A program made the translations under genes and the position numbers. Positions 4,951 through 22,386 of a DNA stretch of 55,602 nucleotides are shown piece after piece. The notes below the pieces were generated by a model. It worked only from the letters and a program-made list of their open reading frames with translations. It made no database searches and was not told the origin of the DNA. This DNA is from a virus. Lineage: Duplodnaviria; Heunggongvirae; Uroviricota; Caudoviricetes. The stretch covers positions 1 to 55,602 of IMG/VR virus record IMGVR_UViG_2923286960_000003, one strand, 5' to 3'. Position 1 is the stretch's first letter. Each line of letters opens with the position of its first letter.

Positions 4951-5430
4951 GATGGCAGCCTCCGCGATGAATTTGATTAACTCACCACCGAGGTTTTCCA
5001 CGACCATAAGGGTGGTGAGACGTACAGGGGTGGAAATACCGGTCATCACGGAACCCGGCCAGCCTTGCGGCTGCCCTGCACGCCCCACCATAATGCGAAT
5101 GTGGCTGTGCTTAACGCATAAAAAAACCGCCTGAGCGCGGTTATGCGCCGTGAATGATTTCGGGTTTCCACGCCCGGCACCCGTTTTATGAGGTGCAGGT
5201 GCACTATAATTCCACCCGTTCTGGTTTTCAATAGCTACATTCAACATTTTCTCTACCTTTCATCACCGAAGTGAACTTTGTTGATGCGGTGCCTGGTGCC
5301 TCCAGGTGACGTTAACCAGTTAACAATTAACGTCGGATACAGAGCATTCCCGTTACGCCCGTAAAAGACCGCTTGTTTTAACTGTTCCGCGTGCGCTCAG
5401 CCGCATTCACCGCATCACAAAATTCACTTT

Positions 5431-5488
5431 AAAAACGGCGGCAGAGCAGTCACGGAGTAAAACTGATACCGCCAAACGTCACCAGAAA
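5431..5488 (-). ncRNA. dicF: DicF small regulatory RNA
   Basis: minus-strand sequence TTTCTGGTGACGTTTGGCGGTATCAGTTTTACTCCGTGACTGCTCTGCCGCC followed by T-run; matches remembered DicF with GGCGG/CCGCC terminator stem. Confidence 0.85.
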
Positions 5489-6952: not shown

Positions 6953-7148
6953 GCTGACCTCATTTCCCCTTAACGCCGGGTGGCGGAACTAAAACCTACA
7001 GCGCCGTGCTGTTCTTGATAGAAATATTAGTAACGCGGATATTTTAAGTCAACAGTATGGCGTATGATATTTTTGATTTGGTAACTATGTAAATGTTTTT
7101 TCAAGGGAAAAATATTAGTTATACAGCTGATTTGCAGAAGTTATGGCA

Positions 7149-7179
7149 CAAAAAAACCGACTAAGACGTCGGTTTTTTT
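7149..7179. terminator. bidirectional rho-independent terminator
   Basis: aaaaaaaccgac-taaga-cgtcggttttttt: GC stem flanked by A-run and T-run; lies between repressor gene end and early-left operon. Confidence 0.55.
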
Positions 7180-7205
7180 GTTGTGGATGGGGTAGTGAGC
7201 GGTGG

Positions 7206-7667
7206 CTACTGGTTACGTTTCTTTAGTGCCAGCATGTTCTCGAAGGCTTCCTCGTAGAGCTTGTTTAGTCCACGTAGCTGGTTAAGGAGTTTGGCTTTTT
7301 CTGACGCAGGTAGAATCTCGAAGAGGTTAAGTAACTCTGCCTGTTCTTCATTGACCAGCCTCCATCCTTTGCCTGAAAAGTTATCATCATAAGTATCTGA
7401 TGATCTTACATAATTCATTAAGTCTTTAAGGTCTTCTCGAATGTCCTCTGGTTTTACCTTTAACAGAGCCGCAAATTTTAGCGCAGCGTCGGTATTTACC
7501 GGTATCTTGCCGTTCAGATACTGGCTAACGGTGCCTTGAGATTCGAATCCCAACAACTCAGCCGCCAGCTCTTGAGTCAGCTTCAGCTCTTTTTTTCTTG
7601 CATTCCATGCGGCTTTTAAATTCTTGCTCGCTTCTGGAGTTGCAATCACTTCGCGTGTTTTTTTCAT
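7206..7667 (-). CDS. DicA/CI-like prophage repressor (HTH XRE N-terminus, no S24 peptidase)
   Basis: 153 aa; HTH LTQELAAELLGFESQGTVSQYLNG; C-terminal ELLNLFEILPASEKAKLL resembles remembered DicA C-terminus; divergent from cro-like gene. Confidence 0.7.
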   Translation of the reverse strand: MKKTREVIATPEASKNLKAAWNARKKELKLTQELAAELLGFESQGTVSQYLNGKIPVNTDAALKFAALLKVKPEDIREDLKDLMNYVRSSDTYDDNFSGKGWRLVNEEQAELLNLFEILPASEKAKLLNQLRGLNKLYEEAFENMLALKKRNQ

Positions 7668-7715
7668 ACATAGAGTTTATTTGTTTTACCAATATTATCA
7701 AAGATAGTCTGGCTA

Positions 7716-7744
7716 TTGATCTTTAAAATTAGCGGGGCTAATAT
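7716..7744 (+). promoter_or_regulatory. PR-like sigma70 promoter for cro-like gene
   Basis: TTGATC (7716-7721), 17-bp spacer, TAATAT (7739-7744), about 30 nt upstream of cro-like ATG; TTGATC recurs 30 bp downstream (possible operator half-sites). Confidence 0.45.
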
Positions 7745-7774
7745 TTGATCGAGGCATAACGTAGAAGGTTGGCT

Positions 7775-8048
7775 ATGAACTTAAGAGACTATTTAAAAGA
7801 GAAACATATCACCCAGCTACAGTTTGGGAAGCTAACGGGTTTATCTCAGGTGCATGTAAGTCGAGTGCTGGGGGCTATGAAAGATTCAGCCCTGAAAAAG
7901 CATTACGTGTTGCTGAAGTAACGAATTTCGAGGTTCCACCTCATGAACTCCGGCCTGATATTTACCCGAATCCAACCGACGGCTTACCTGTTGGATTCAA
8001 GGCTAACACACCAAATGCATCGGAGTTGATTCATGAAAATCAGGCATG
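7775..8048 (+). pseudogene. Cro/YdaS-like HTH regulator with apparent 1-nt frameshift
   Basis: ATG 7775 ORF stops at 7921 after 48 aa; the adjacent frame continues as GYERFSPEKALRVAEVTNFEVPPHELRPDIYPNPTDG... to 8048; frames join at a G5 run (7870-7874). Confidence 0.45.
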
Positions 8049-8458
8049 AGCACATCCGCATGGCGATGAATGCCTGGGCGCATCCGGACGGTGAAAAAGT
8101 TCCGGCAGCTGAAATAACCCGGGCTTATTTTGAGCTTGGTATGACGTTCCCGGAATTATATGACGACAGCCATCCGGAAGCCCTGGCTCGCAATACCCAG
8201 AAAATTTTCCGCTGGGTGGAGAAAGACACTCCTGATGCGGTTAAAAAAATTCAGGCGTTGTTACCAGCGATCGAAAAAGCAATGCCGCCTCTGCTGGTGG
8301 CCCGAATGCGCAGCCACAGTTCAGCTTATTTTCGGGAGCTGGTGGAGACGCGGGAACGACTGGTGAGAGACGCTGATGATTTTGTCGCAGTGGCGATCGC
8401 TGGTTTCAACCAGATGAATCGTGGTGGCCCTGCAGGAAATATTGTGGCTGTGCATTGA
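8033..8458 (+). CDS. YdaT-like protein (CII-position regulator/toxin family)
   Basis: 141 aa beginning MKIRHEHI, ending VAVH; resembles Rac YdaT from memory; follows cro-like gene. Confidence 0.6.
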   Translation: MKIRHEHIRMAMNAWAHPDGEKVPAAEITRAYFELGMTFPELYDDSHPEALARNTQKIFRWVEKDTPDAVKKIQALLPAIEKAMPPLLVARMRSHSSAYFRELVETRERLVRDADDFVAVAIAGFNQMNRGGPAGNIVAVH

Positions 8459-8529
8459 CTCGCAATATTCATACCGGATCACTTCCGGCAATTTGTGAGT
8501 AAAAAGATTCGGTATCAGAAGAGGTGAGT

Positions 8530-9570
8530 ATGGCTAACGCCTGGCTCAGATTATGGCATGACATGCCAAATGACCCTAAGTGGCGAACAATTGCCAGGGT
8601 GTCAGGGCAGCCAATTGCAACAGTGATGGCAGTGTATATCCACCTTCTGGTGAGCGCGTCACGAAATGTCACGACATGTCACGGCGTGTCACTACGTGGT
8701 CACATTGATGTCACGACGGAAGATTTAGCAAGTGCGCTTGATGTGACGGAAGAAGTAATTGATTCAATTTTACAGGCAATGCAGGGGCGGGTACTTGATG
8801 GAGATTTAATCACCGGATGGGAAAAACGCCAGGTACTGAAAGAGGACAATGGCAACGTTTCACAAACCGCGAAATCCCCGGCAGAGCGCAAGAGAGCGCA
8901 GCGCGAGAGGGAAAAATTACGAAAACAGAATGAGGGGTGTCACGACGAGTCACGCATATGTCACGACATGTCACGACGAGTCACGACAGATAAAGATACA
9001 GATAAAGAATTAAACCCCACACATAACGCGCACGTGCGCGAGAGTGCTCCGACCAGTGAGTCGAGTGGTACGCCGTTGCAGGCAGCAGAACCTGCATCCC
9101 TGGATGGACTGAGCGAACCCATCGGGAAATTTCCGATGGTCGATGACTGGCATCCGTCGCCGGATTTTCGACGACGGGCTGCGTTGTGGGGGATGGCTTT
9201 GCCGGAGCCGGAATTTACACCTGCTGAACTTGCCGCTTTCCGGGACTACTGGGCAGCGGAGGGGAAAGTTTTCACGCAGGTTCAGTGGGAGCAGAAATTC
9301 GCCCGTCACGTAAATCACGTCAGGGCGCAGGTTAAGCCAGTCAGCAAGGGGGTAAACCATGCAGCAGCACCAGGTGGCACCGCATCACGGGCAGTTCAGG
9401 AAATTCGGGCAGCACGTGAGCAGTGGGAACGTGAAAACGGATTTATCAGCGACGGAAACGGTCTGGAAGCTGTGGGAACTCATGGGGGAGGTTTATTCGA
9501 ACCGCTGGACCCAGAAGAACGGGGCCGCACCTTCGAAGCTCTGGATTGCACAGATTGGCGCGATGACTGA
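8530..9570 (+). CDS. replication initiation protein (replisome-organizer-like N-terminus)
   Basis: N-terminal WLRLWHDMPNDPKWRTIARVSG...HLLVSAS pattern typical of phage replication initiators; two phased GTCAC iteron arrays inside the gene; RBS agaggtga. Confidence 0.55.
   Translation: MANAWLRLWHDMPNDPKWRTIARVSGQPIATVMAVYIHLLVSASRNVTTCHGVSLRGHIDVTTEDLASALDVTEEVIDSILQAMQGRVLDGDLITGWEKRQVLKEDNGNVSQTAKSPAERKRAQREREKLRKQNEGCHDESRICHDMSRRVTTDKDTDKELNPTHNAHVRESAPTSESSGTPLQAAEPASLDGLSEPIGKFPMVDDWHPSPDFRRRAALWGMALPEPEFTPAELAAFRDYWAAEGKVFTQVQWEQKFARHVNHVRAQVKPVSKGVNHAAAPGGTASRAVQEIRAAREQWERENGFISDGNGLEAVGTHGGGLFEPLDPEERGRTFEALDCTDWRDD
8658..8714. repeat. iteron-like array 1: six GTCAC(G) repeats at 10-11 bp phasing
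   Basis: GTCAC at 8658, 8668, 8678, 8688, 8699, 8710. Confidence 0.6.
8949..9030. repeat. iteron-like array 2 (five ATGTCACGAC-type repeats) plus adjacent AT-rich tract; candidate replication origin
   Basis: GTCAC at 8949, 8959, 8970, 8980, 8990, followed by gataaagatacagataaagaattaaa. Confidence 0.55.
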
Positions 9571-10024
9571 GCAGCAAATCCGACAGGTCTGCCGCCAGTG
9601 CATGGACCGCTGCCGGGCGGGTGAAACATGGCCTCCGGACCTGGCTGAGTTTGTGGCGCTGATTTCAGAAAGCGGGGCCAATCCATTTGGCCTGACGGTG
9701 GATGCTGTGATGGAGGAGTACCGCCGCTGGCGTGATGAGTCCTGGCGATATGACGGAAGCGACAAATATCCGTGGCCTCAGCCTGTGCTGTACCACATCT
9801 GCCTCGAAATGCGTACCAGAGGGATTGAGCGCCAGATGACGCAGGGTGAGTTAAAACGACTTGCGGAACGGCAACTGACGAAATGGGCAAAGCATGTTGG
9901 TAACGGGATGAGTGTTCCGCCAGTGCGACGACAACTGGAAGGGGCGAAACACCCGCAAGGGCCAACGCCAATTGAACGGCTGAAACAGGAATACGAACGC
10001 CGGAAGGCAGCTGGTTTTATTTGA
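9563..10024 (+). CDS. hypothetical replication-associated protein
   Basis: ATG overlaps initiator stop (ATGACTGA coupling); 153 aa; no Walker motif; longer ORF from 9359 is possible. Confidence 0.4.
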   Translation: MTEQQIRQVCRQCMDRCRAGETWPPDLAEFVALISESGANPFGLTVDAVMEEYRRWRDESWRYDGSDKYPWPQPVLYHICLEMRTRGIERQMTQGELKRLAERQLTKWAKHVGNGMSVPPVRRQLEGAKHPQGPTPIERLKQEYERRKAAGFI

Positions 10025-10057
10025 ATCTGAGAAACGATTTTGTCGGAGGAAATTTTA

Positions 10058-10828
10058 ATGGAAACCGTATTTGACGCACTGAAAGCAATGGGAAAAGCCA
10101 CATCGGTAGAACTGGCCGCGCGACTTGATATCAGTCGTGAAGAGGTTCTCAACGAGCTGTGGGAACTCAAAAGAAATGGCGTCGTTGATAAAACTGGTCA
10201 CACCTGGTTTCTGGCTGGCGAAGGTGAATCCCGGGTAACCGAAGAGCGGCCAGTAAAATCTGAAGCACAGGATATGCTGACCGGGGAGGTCGAACAAAAA
10301 GTTACCGCAGACATGATGATTGAGTTTATCGGTCAGGATGGTGCTAAAACGTGTGAGGAACTGGCGGGTAAGTTCGGCGTCAGTACTCGCAAGGTTGCCT
10401 CCACGCTGGCGGTGGTAACCGCAACGGGGCGGCTGGCACGCGTTAATCAGAACGATAAATTTCGTTACTGCATGCCGGGCGATAATTTACCAGCAGAGCC
10501 GAAAGCCGCGCTGGTAACGGAAAGTGATGGTAAGGCCTTTCCTCAGCCAGCAGGTGCTGCGTTACCAGTCCGGGAAGCCGCAACACAGGAAGAAATTAAA
10601 ACAGAAACTGTGGCGGACATTGTGCAGCCGTTGCCATCGTTTACCGAAACGCAAGCAGATGAGCTGATTTTTCCGTCCCTTCGCAGGGCAAACCTGGCGC
10701 TGCGCAGGGCGAAAAGTGATGTTCAGAAGTGGGAGCGAGTCTGCGCCGCGCTGCGGGAGGTGAACAAGCACCGGGATATTGTTCGACAGATTACTGATTC
10801 TTCCCGCCGTGTTGTATCGGAAAAGTGA
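10058..10828 (+). CDS. hypothetical protein with two winged-helix-like repeats (DUF1627-like)
   Basis: GGAGGA RBS 8 nt before ATG 10058; two similar segments ([26 protein letters not shown] and [23 protein letters not shown]). Confidence 0.5.
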
Positions 10829-14344: not shown

Positions 14345-14635
14345 CCTGGCCTGAAGCATTAACAACGGTAGGAATTGCGATGGCGGTGGCGCTGGTGGTG
14401 TATTCGATTTGCCGCTGGGGATAAAAACGGTTTGCGGGAAAAGGAGAGTTAAGTAGAATTGCAGCGGGTGCTTGAGGCTATCTGTCTCAGGCATGAACAC
14501 CAAAAGGCAGATAGAGAAAAGCCCCAGTTAACATTACGCGTCCGGCAAGACGCTTAACATTAATCTGAGGCCATATCTATGCTCTACACACGTAGGTTAG
14601 CCTCTTACGTGCCGAAAGGCAAGGAGAAGCAGGCT

Positions 14636-14791
14636 ATGAAGCAGCAAAAGGCGATGCTAATCGCCCTGATCGTCATCTGTTTAACCGTCATTGTGACGGC
14701 ACTGGTAACGAGGAAAGACCTCTGCGAGGTACGAATCCGAACCGGCCAGACGGAGGTCGCTGTCTTCACAGCTTACGAACCTGAGGAGTAA
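14636..14791 (+). CDS. hokD: Hok/Gef family membrane toxin
   Basis: 51 aa MKQQKAMLIALIVICLTVIVTALVTRKDLCEVRIRTGQTEVAVFTAYEPEE matches my memory of HokD/RelF; strong RBS aaggagaag. Confidence 0.85.
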   Translation: MKQQKAMLIALIVICLTVIVTALVTRKDLCEVRIRTGQTEVAVFTAYEPEE

Positions 14792-21280: not shown

Positions 21281-21356
21281 GGCCCTTTAGCTCAGTGGTG
21301 AGAGCGAGCGACTCATAATCGCCAGGTCGCTGGTTCAAATCCAGCAAGGGCCACCA
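21281..21356 (+). tRNA. tRNA with CAT anticodon (Met or Ile2/lysidine type)
   Basis: hand-folded cloverleaf: acceptor GGCCCTT/AAGGGCC, D-stem GCTC/GAGC, anticodon loop CTCATAA, T-stem GCTGG/CCAGC, encoded CCA. Confidence 0.8.
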
Positions 21357-21363
21357 TCACATA

Positions 21364-21440
21364 CCGCCATTAGCTCATCGGGATAGAGCGCCAGCCTTCG
21401 AAGCTGGCTGCGCGGGGTTCAAGTCCCCGATGGCGGTCCA
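21364..21440 (+). tRNA. tRNA-Arg (anticodon TCG by hand fold)
   Basis: acceptor CCGCCAT/ATGGCGG, D-arm TAGCTC...GAGC, anticodon loop CTTCGAA, T-stem CGGGG/CCCCG, CCA; C1-G72 and U73 are unusual. Confidence 0.65.
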
Positions 21441-21453
21441 TTATCTGTATCCT

Positions 21454-21510
21454 GCGTTGTTAGCTCAGCCGGACAGAGCAATTGCCTTCTAAGCAGCTGT
21501 GGTTGCACTC
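21454..21510 (+). pseudogene. 3'-truncated tRNA-Arg (TCT) remnant
   Basis: acceptor 5' half, D-arm and anticodon arm (loop CTTCTAA) intact, but no T-arm and no 3' acceptor complement downstream. Confidence 0.45.
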
Positions 21511-21696
21511 CTGTTGTTTCTGGTGGTGATGGTGGACTTCAGCAGCCGGATAATGTCGGTGCTGTCTGATGGTGTTTTGGTGGCGGGTGTGTGGTTGTTG
21601 CTTTCCCGTTGCTGAAAAAGAAAGCATCAGGCGATTAGCAGGGTATCAGTTACCCGTTGAAATTTTTAAATACCTCACAATTCCACAGCTTGATGA

Positions 21697-21893
21697 TTGT
21701 CTGGCTGCCGGAGAATTTGTTAAAAATTACATCGCATGGTGAATCCCCCTCAGCGGCGGGGCATCTGGCAAAGTGTATGATCCAGAGAACATGCAAATTC
21801 AGTAGACAGGCTGAATTTACCGGGAGGCCCCTGGCACCATGCGACAGACAGAAATTAGGCTATACTTCAGCCCCTCTCCGGAGGGGCTTTTCT
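21697..21893 (+). ncRNA. structured ncRNA-like element, copy 1
   Basis: promoter-like TTGTCT-17-TTAAAA, 8-bp closing helix GCATGGTG(21734)/CACCATGC(21835) enclosing several hairpins, then terminator agcccctctccggaggggcttttct. Confidence 0.4.
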
Positions 21894-22156
21894 GTGCAGG
21901 ATGTGTCACAGTTTCCTGAATTCTGAGTACTGTCCTGTTACTCAGGGTGCTATATTTTCTGACGTGATGAAAGTCTGCCGGAAGGCGGAACGTATCGGAA
22001 ATGACCCAGTAGAGAAAACGTTGACTCAGATACCGATGCTGAGTTACCGGGAAACCGGCATCACATGACCGCTATCCTTCCAGGCTCGCTCCGGCGGGCC
22101 TTTTTACTGCAGAAAACAGTTTTCCCGTAAAATGCCACGTTGCTCATAATTCAGGC

Positions 22157-22350
22157 TGGCGATTATTGTCTGGCCGGCGGGAAGTTTGTTAAAAAATTTC
22201 GCATGGTGAATCCCCCTGTGCGGAGGGGTAATCAGCGAGTAGGTATATGGGATAATCGCGGATTCAGGTGCTGGTACTGAATTCACCGGGAGGCACCCGG
22301 CACCATGCAATGGCACATAGCGCCACTCTCCAGCCCCTCTCCGGAGGGGC
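22157..22350 (+). ncRNA. structured ncRNA-like element, copy 2
   Basis: same architecture as copy 1 (closing helix 22192/22292; terminator 22324-22341); stems conserved, loop sequences diverged. Confidence 0.4.
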
Positions 22351-22386
22351 TGTTTATATTGATTTTGTCAGATGTGAGTAAACTGC

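Follow-up and report, generated by a model that had tools for sequence, protein, structure and literature searches.

The DNA considered here, referred to as the window, is the whole stretch of 55,602 nucleotides (nt) from IMG/VR virus record IMGVR_UViG_2923286960_000003 (positions 1 to 55,602), and represents an Escherichia coli lambdoid prophage. Its replication initiator gene contains, within the coding sequence (CDS), two arrays of the short word GTCAC(G), the second of which is followed directly by an AT-rich tract. We consider it probable, at a likelihood of about 0.75 on the evidence of sequence comparison, that the arrays and the tract together are the origin from which the phage carries out vegetative (theta) replication, an origin housed within the gene for its own initiator. 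The stretch that encodes the initiator is 100% identical in E. coli 042, ABU 83972 and other strains. The features of the gene, in window coordinates, are as follows.

8530-9570, plus strand: replication initiator gene, an open reading frame (ORF) of 346 amino acids (aa) with a winged-helix N-domain, a basic helix, a disordered linker and a DnaT-like C-domain
8530-8829, plus strand: CDS of the winged-helix domain at the N-terminus (aa 1-100), presumed to bind the iterons
8658-8715, plus strand: iteron array 1, six GTCAC(G) words at spacings of 10, 10, 10, 11 and 11 base pairs (bp), encoding aa 43-62
8743-8747, minus strand: single inverted GTCAC, 33 nt after array 1
8939-8985, plus strand: iteron array 2, five GTCACG words at spacings of 10, 11, 10 and 10 bp, encoding aa 137-152 in the disordered linker
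8985-9014, no strand assigned: AT-rich tract GACAGATAAAGATACAGATAAAGAATTAAA, which includes ACAGATAAAGAT twice, the presumed DNA unwinding element
9027-9040, no strand assigned: perfect 14-bp GC-rich palindrome CGCGCACGTGCGCG, 13 nt past the AT tract
9130-9330, plus strand: CDS of the DnaT-like single-stranded DNA (ssDNA)-binding domain (aa 201-267)

The initial annotation of this DNA had taken the gene for a replication initiator, and this identification is borne out by matches to PHROG 1408 and PHROG 3729 ('replication initiation protein') and by the position of the gene in an operon of repressor, cro-like, YdaT, initiator and P-like loader genes. In E. coli 042, PGAP gives the gene identical coordinates and the name 'DnaT-like ssDNA-binding domain-containing protein'. 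The AlphaFold2 model of the protein has four parts. The N-domain (aa 1-100) is winged-helix-like and mostly confident, with predicted local distance difference test (pLDDT) values above 90 except in the first ten residues, the loop at aa 41-60 and aa 91-100; a basic helix (aa 117-133) is followed by disorder from aa 137 to about aa 193, a linker of ~60 residues in which aa 137-162 have pLDDT values below 50; and the C-domain matches the DnaT C-domain in both sequence and fold (Pfam PF17948, aa 201-267, E 9.6e-18). No Pfam family matches the N-domain above threshold. Its nearest solved fold is the N-terminal domain of DnaD (DnaD-NTD), and the weak PHROG matches of the initiator are to replisome organizer and DnaD-like families (E 4.5e-5 and 4.8e-7).

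The plus-strand GTCAC words begin at 8658, 8668, 8678, 8688, 8699 and 8710 in array 1 and at 8939, 8949, 8960, 8970 and 8980 in array 2, and nine of the eleven have the longer form GTCACG. These counts, the spacing of 10-11 bp and the presence of an AT-rich tract after the second array are as the initial annotation had described them, and all of the elements lie inside 8530-9570. Taken over the whole window GTCAC is not enriched (107 matches, 99.6 expected), and no further cluster of GTCAC or GTCACG was found anywhere in the 55.6 kb. Apart from the two arrays, no 5-mer in the window forms a run of at least four copies spaced 10-11 nt apart; the longest such run in 200 block shuffles was three, and Tandem Repeats Finder calls both arrays with a period of 10. 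Array 1 encodes the loop or hairpin that connects helix 1 to helix 2 in the winged helix, and array 2 together with the AT tract encodes aa 137-162 of the disordered linker. The tract, which lies directly 3' of array 2 and starts 1 nt after it, has the lowest stability of any 30-mer in the gene and stands at the 99.8th percentile of the window. No promoter or terminator signals were found in the arrays; the only terminator-like matches are on the minus strand, on the palindrome at 9027-9040, and their number is at chance level. An Rfam search of positions 7000-10500 at E<=1 returned two sub-threshold matches alone, both at 7108-7184, and no known RNA element. A DnaA-box-like sequence, TATATCCAC, at ~8640 agrees at only seven of nine positions and overlaps conserved codons.

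The nature of the repeats was examined through the codons used in 23 homologous genes of the GTCAC class, including those from E. coli, Serratia, Rahnella, Aeromonas, Pseudomonas, Bordetella, Chromobacterium and Acidovorax, at loci that range from 34 to 69% GC. Conserved residues are specified by a mean of 1.8 codons inside the arrays (entropy 0.33) and by 3.5 codons outside them (entropy 1.45; Mann-Whitney p = 1e-6 for the difference in entropy). Within array 1 the codons of V47 (GTC), T48 (ACG), G57 (GGT) and V61 (GTC) are the same in 23/23 genes and that of H58 (CAC) in 22/22; within array 2 the same holds for S148 (TCA) and V151 (GTC), each in 23/23, and at the inverted copy for V72 (GTG in 20/20). 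The linker is otherwise unalignable, but its word-encoded residues H145, S148, R149, V151, T152 and D154 are invariant or nearly so. GTCAC is read in all three frames, as VT, as CH or GH and as SR or SL, at a period of 10-11 nt that does not amount to a whole number of codons, and the arrays are therefore not a peptide repeat. In the AT tract, which is also found in phages of P. aeruginosa and Aeromonas, GC-rich hosts retain the codons too (D154 as GAT in 21/21, K155 as AAA in 19/20). Judged by their codons, the repeats are DNA-level elements under purifying selection and not protein repeats, and by the same measure the AT tract is under such selection as well. It is this conservation of the arrays as DNA, and not as protein, that would make a replication origin their very probable function.

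The initial annotation had named absence of the repeats from homologous genes as a ground for rejecting it; they were looked for, and are present in homologues across the Gamma- and Betaproteobacteria. The number of copies varies from three to six in array 1 and from three to nine in array 2, and the spacing stays at 10-11 bp throughout. The window and E. albertii have 6+5 copies (array 1 plus array 2), phages 689R5, Evi and Tritos have 4+5, one P. aeruginosa phage has 4+4, Aeromonas phage pAEv1818 has 4+3 and one Serratia locus has 3+3. Relative to most homologues, the two extra copies in array 1 of the window amount to an insertion of 21 nt, or seven codons. Among 80 close relatives in IMG/VR, array 2 has four to nine copies, always 10-11 nt apart; the locus with nine (L112, at gene nt ~390-480, against four to six copies in the other relatives) retains both the phasing and the reading frame. 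The inverted GTCAC recurs at the same offset in most homologues of the GTCAC class. Phase-locked looping between the two arrays is unsupported, in that the gap between them, measured from the final array 1 copy to the initial array 2 copy, varies from 219 to 247 nt among GTCAC-class loci.

In more divergent homologues a different word, CGAACGC or GTAAC, is found at both array positions together. Among 52 loci that were classed, 29 have GTCAC, 11 have (C)GAACG(C) and 4 have GTAAC, in each case at both positions, and 8 could not be assigned. The CGAACGC word occurs in about ten Betaproteobacterial and other loci, as three to four copies at the first position and two to four at the second; the GTAAC(G) class comprises four loci, one of which (L009) was placed there by related TAACG and GTAAC words. 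In both of these classes the second array is followed by a purine- and AT-rich tract of the type GATA(A/C)AGAT. The word goes with the protein: when loci were compared by the residues encoded outside the arrays, the nearest neighbour had the same word class in 36/44 cases. In three loci of the GTAAC class (L027, L031 and L038) the word is used in only two of the three frames, the third of which would create a TAA stop codon; the reading frame appears, from these sequences, to constrain the phasing of the sites. The array 1 copies of L027 and L031 are 21 nt apart, and L031 has inverted GTTAC copies interleaved with them.

Comparison of the GTCAC and GAACG classes also raises a more speculative possibility for array 1. 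Within the folded N-domain, fixed amino acid differences between these classes occur only in the loop that array 1 encodes (aa 46, 48 and 58), the sole other difference being an insertion or deletion at aa 108-116. Since the fixed differences are confined in this way, array 1 may be both a site and a part of its own reader, i.e., the same ~60 bp might serve as a binding site for the initiator and as the code for a loop of the DNA-binding domain that helps to read that site. We regard such a self-referential arrangement as doubtful. Were it to exist, any change in the iteron word would automatically alter its reader, which would provide a built-in route for the joint switching of origin and initiator specificity and would explain why an array is placed inside the domain's own coding sequence.

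The AT tract also marks a discontinuity in the ancestry of the gene. Two sets of megablast matches to the initiator gene can be distinguished, and one gives way to the other at 8988-9008, within the tract: the N-terminal half is common to 689R5, Evi and Tritos, and the C-terminal half to ydaU of Rac-SA53 and to PPompW phages. YdaU of Rac-SA53 has an unrelated N-domain, of the DUF1376 type, and lacks GTCAC, yet it has the same AT tract and C-terminal half. As far as these matches reveal, the tract is a mosaic junction between N- and C-terminal modules of the gene. The palindrome CGCGCACGTGCGCG belongs to the C-terminal module that the gene shares with Rac-SA53, where it is imperfect. In the place of the GTCAC arrays, ydaU of Rac-SA53 (L005, 2441-2473) carries a perfect 10-bp inverted repeat, TGTTCAAACA / TGTTTGAACA, some 30 nt upstream of the AT tract, and this may be the DUF1376-type module's own initiator site.

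The partners of the N-domain and arrays differ from one host group to another. In E. coli they are joined to a DnaT-like C-domain, a P-like loader and a YdaT-like gene; in a 50.9-kb circular P. aeruginosa phage genome to an unrelated C-part, a DnaB-like helicase and an upstream gene of the CII family; and in Aeromonas phage pAEv1818 yet another helicase gene lies beside them. The arrays keep their N-domain while these partners change, and the constant unit is therefore N-domain, arrays and AT tract, which, by its sequence, has the make-up expected of an initiator-and-origin specificity cassette.

Part of this module occurs in 2,569 of 5,426 complete E. coli genomes. A protein search returned 1,031 matching proteins, each of which stands for one cluster at 90% identity, across Gamma- and Betaproteobacteria, and at least 582 IMG/VR stretches encode the initiator, whose family is named 'phage replisome organizer' by NCBI. 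The N-domain is present in 24 phage records, all of them recent and none from a classical model phage. Small plasmids with this initiator as their sole replicon were sought among the 11 records labelled 'plasmid', and none was found; the records are large E. coli replicons or chromosome-sized records, a ~1-Mb replicon of Azospirillum and two circular P. aeruginosa records of 50.9 kb, of which the one inspected is a phage genome. Many of the NCBI entries for the initiator are 'partial' and end at 150-290 aa, which suggests that draft assemblies often break in or just after the gene, probably because its halves occur in several prophages of one genome. None of the public records inspected in detail annotates an origin at this gene, and our searches of the literature found no published description of it, although an earlier mention may exist.

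The functional interpretation of the arrays draws on two phage systems in which origins of similar layout are experimentally proven. In phage lambda, the origin (oriλ) lies in the middle of gene O and consists of iterons, each an inverted repeat, followed by an AT tract, on which the initiator forms the O-some; the number of iterons differs between lambda (four) and the Shiga toxin (Stx) phages (six), which adds residues to the O protein, and the extra iterons of the Stx phages are needed for efficient replication (PMC7466680). In phage SPP1, gene 38 contains direct repeats as well as an AT-rich unwinding element that are bound by the replisome organizer (PMC6316719). By analogy with oriλ and with SPP1 oriL, we infer that array 2 (8939-8985) and the AT tract (8985-9014) make up the core origin. 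The winged-helix N-domain would bind the GTCAC(G) words; since there is one word per helical turn, the sites would all lie on one face of the DNA, so that the protomers might stack head-to-tail into an O-some-like nucleoprotein. Loading of the initiator on array 2 would then destabilise and melt the adjacent AT tract, and the DnaT-like C-domain, on its tether of ~60 residues, might capture the opened strand, contact the P-like loader, or do both, whereupon the loader would deliver the DnaB helicase of the host. Array 1 (8658-8715) could provide auxiliary sites for the same initiator that serve local concentration, the stability of the complex or control, a role with which the requirement for extra iterons in the Stx phages is consistent (PMC7466680).

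The initial annotation had likened the locus to the lambda arrangement of an origin within O, with a different iteron and an initiator N-terminus unlike that of O. The likeness is sound for array 2 and the AT tract, which, as in oriλ, lie in the segment that encodes the linker between domains; it fails for array 1, which is situated instead in a loop of the folded N-domain and is without a counterpart in lambda. Shared with lambda are the placement of the candidate origin inside the gene for its own initiator, the direct repeats with an AT-rich tract on their 3' side, the P-like loader gene that follows, the location of the module in an early operon of the pR type, the variation of iteron number between relatives and the presumed division of labour in which specificity for the origin would reside in the N-domain and that for the loader in the C-part. 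The two differences named in the annotation hold up. Lambda iterons are 18-bp inverted repeats with start-to-start distances of 20, 24 and 23 bp, whereas the core here is asymmetric, only 5-7 bp long and repeated once per helical turn (10-11 bp). No homology of the N-terminus to lambda O was found by Pfam, where PF04492 (Phage_rep_O) gives no match even at E<=10 while lambda O itself scores 5.7e-36, or by hhalign against lambda O (probability 0.1%). A further contrast with lambda is that the arrays number two, separated by ~230 bp, with array 1 falling within the part of the gene that encodes the DNA-binding domain; the C-domain, moreover, is DnaT-like.

Likeness to the G38P/oriL system of SPP1 extends to the direct repeats and AT-rich element within the organizer gene and to the loader gene downstream, and differs in that the hosts here are Proteobacteria. 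The SPP1-type family PF09681 (Phage_rep_org_N) stays below threshold, with matches in 3/47 members and a best E of 0.045. A second, distant copy of the origin comparable to SPP1 oriR was sought and rejected, there being no other cluster of the word in the window. The candidate origin differs from both lambda and SPP1 in its very short, asymmetric, single-turn core, its two arrays and its DnaT-like C-domain.

Other known initiators are more remote. The RepA_N plasmid initiators of Firmicutes (PDB 4pta) have no sequence similarity to the N-domain, belong to another type of replicon and host, and attain a fold score against the N-domain barely above that of generic winged-helix proteins. Host DnaT (primosomal protein I of E. 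coli and Salmonella) functions in PriA-dependent restart and lacks an origin-binding domain, whereas here the DnaT-like domain is fused to an N-domain that is predicted to be sequence-specific. Nor does the locus match the Rep proteins of iteron plasmids, which have two winged-helix domains (WH1-WH2) and iterons of 17-22 bp outside the rep ORF, since the sites here are part of the ORF and their core measures 5-7 bp; the Pfam and NCBIfam matches of the initiator include no plasmid Rep family.

Several observations weigh against reading the locus as an origin. The AT tract is short, ~30 bp as compared with ~40 bp in lambda. Array 1 has neither an adjacent AT tract nor a lambda counterpart. By a simple k-mer test, 8/52 of the classed loci are without an obvious array. 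Finally, the predicted recognition helix of the N-domain has no fixed difference between iteron classes, which leaves the reading of specificity unexplained. Alternatively, the arrays might bind the initiator but serve control only, for example through autoregulation by roadblock, titration or handcuffing, with replication starting elsewhere in the prophage. The position of array 1 early in the gene with no AT tract beside it would fit such a role, as would the variable number of copies, which is expected of titration sites, and the extra iterons of iteron plasmids and Stx phages act mainly on the local concentration of initiator (PMC7466680). We nevertheless think this unlikely: control alone cannot explain why array 2 should border the duplex of lowest stability in the gene, in a tract whose synonymous sites are conserved in GC-rich hosts too, the window holds no other cluster of the word, and the layout is that of the proven lambda and SPP1 origins (PMC7466680, PMC6316719).

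It might also be supposed that the repeats are read by some other factor (a host protein, the repressor or the YdaT/CII-like protein), or that they are recombination 'linker' sequences unrelated to initiation, given that the mosaic junction coincides with the AT tract and that the same tract follows the unrelated DUF1376 N-domain in Rac-SA53 ydaU. This seems very improbable to us in the light of the correspondence between word class and N-domain class, and of the differences in flanking regulator and helicase or loader genes among GTCAC phages of E. coli, Aeromonas and P. aeruginosa; moreover, a recombination linker has no need of one-per-turn phasing or of two arrays of one word, and a host factor would leave three word classes within related hosts unexplained. 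Conservation in the protein alignment of the encoded SR, VT, GH and CH could be taken to mean that the periodicity is imposed by the protein, through a peptide repeat or codon bias, or else due to chance. The use of three frames, the fixation of synonymous codons inside the arrays only, the location of array 2 in a disordered linker and the failure of the shuffles ever to exceed a run of three refute these explanations, to which we assign a negligible probability. An origin on an oriλ-like plan, built from different parts in a widespread and uncharacterised initiator family, is accordingly the best reading of the locus.

The neighbourhood of the initiator gene is that of a lambdoid early region, with the order HTH (helix-turn-helix) repressor-like gene, cro-like gene, YdaT/CII-like gene, initiator, lambda-P-like loader and DUF1627 gene. 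Those for which coordinates were recorded are as follows.

7206-7667, minus strand: HTH repressor-like gene
8033-8458: YdaT/CII-like gene
9359-10024, plus strand: lambda-P-like helicase loader gene, of uncertain start (9359 for the long ORF, ~9563 according to PGAP)

The loader matches Pfam PF06992 (E 5.2e-16), PHROG 109 (P-like helicase loader) and, by BLASTP, lambda P itself (E 2e-6). Its ORF is open from 9359 and so overlaps the last 212 nt of the initiator gene in a different frame (9359-9570). The PGAP start at ~9563 would give a protein of 153 aa, while the Pfam homology to P begins at ~9521 and the alignment with lambda P implies ~220 aa. A single family, PHROG 15931 (482 positions), covers both the initiator and the P-like loader. 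Elsewhere in the window, Rfam matches above the gathering score are to C4 antisense RNA, isrK and DicF (all on the minus strand), sok, two tRNAs and two copies of STnc100, at 5008-5487, 14466-14641 and 21281-22361, which marks the early-left region as Qin/DicB-like. The late region contains a tandem repeat at 34904-35436 (unit of 162 nt, 3.3 copies, 95% identity) that presumably represents a repeated segment of a structural protein.

The family defined by the N-domain is widespread and without a Pfam family, and its candidate origin is unannotated in the public records inspected. Once defined, the origin would supply many lambdoid and Qin/Rac-like prophages, among them prophages from pathogenic E. 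coli and P. aeruginosa, with a replicon open to testing. The three natural specificity classes (GTCAC, GTAAC and CGAACGC) would then offer material for the study of co-evolution between initiators and origins, and the gene would present a clear case of dual coding in which site phasing, reading frame and the avoidance of stop codons constrain each other. The locus may also hint at the role that a DnaT-like ssDNA-binding domain can take on once it has been fused to an origin-binding domain.

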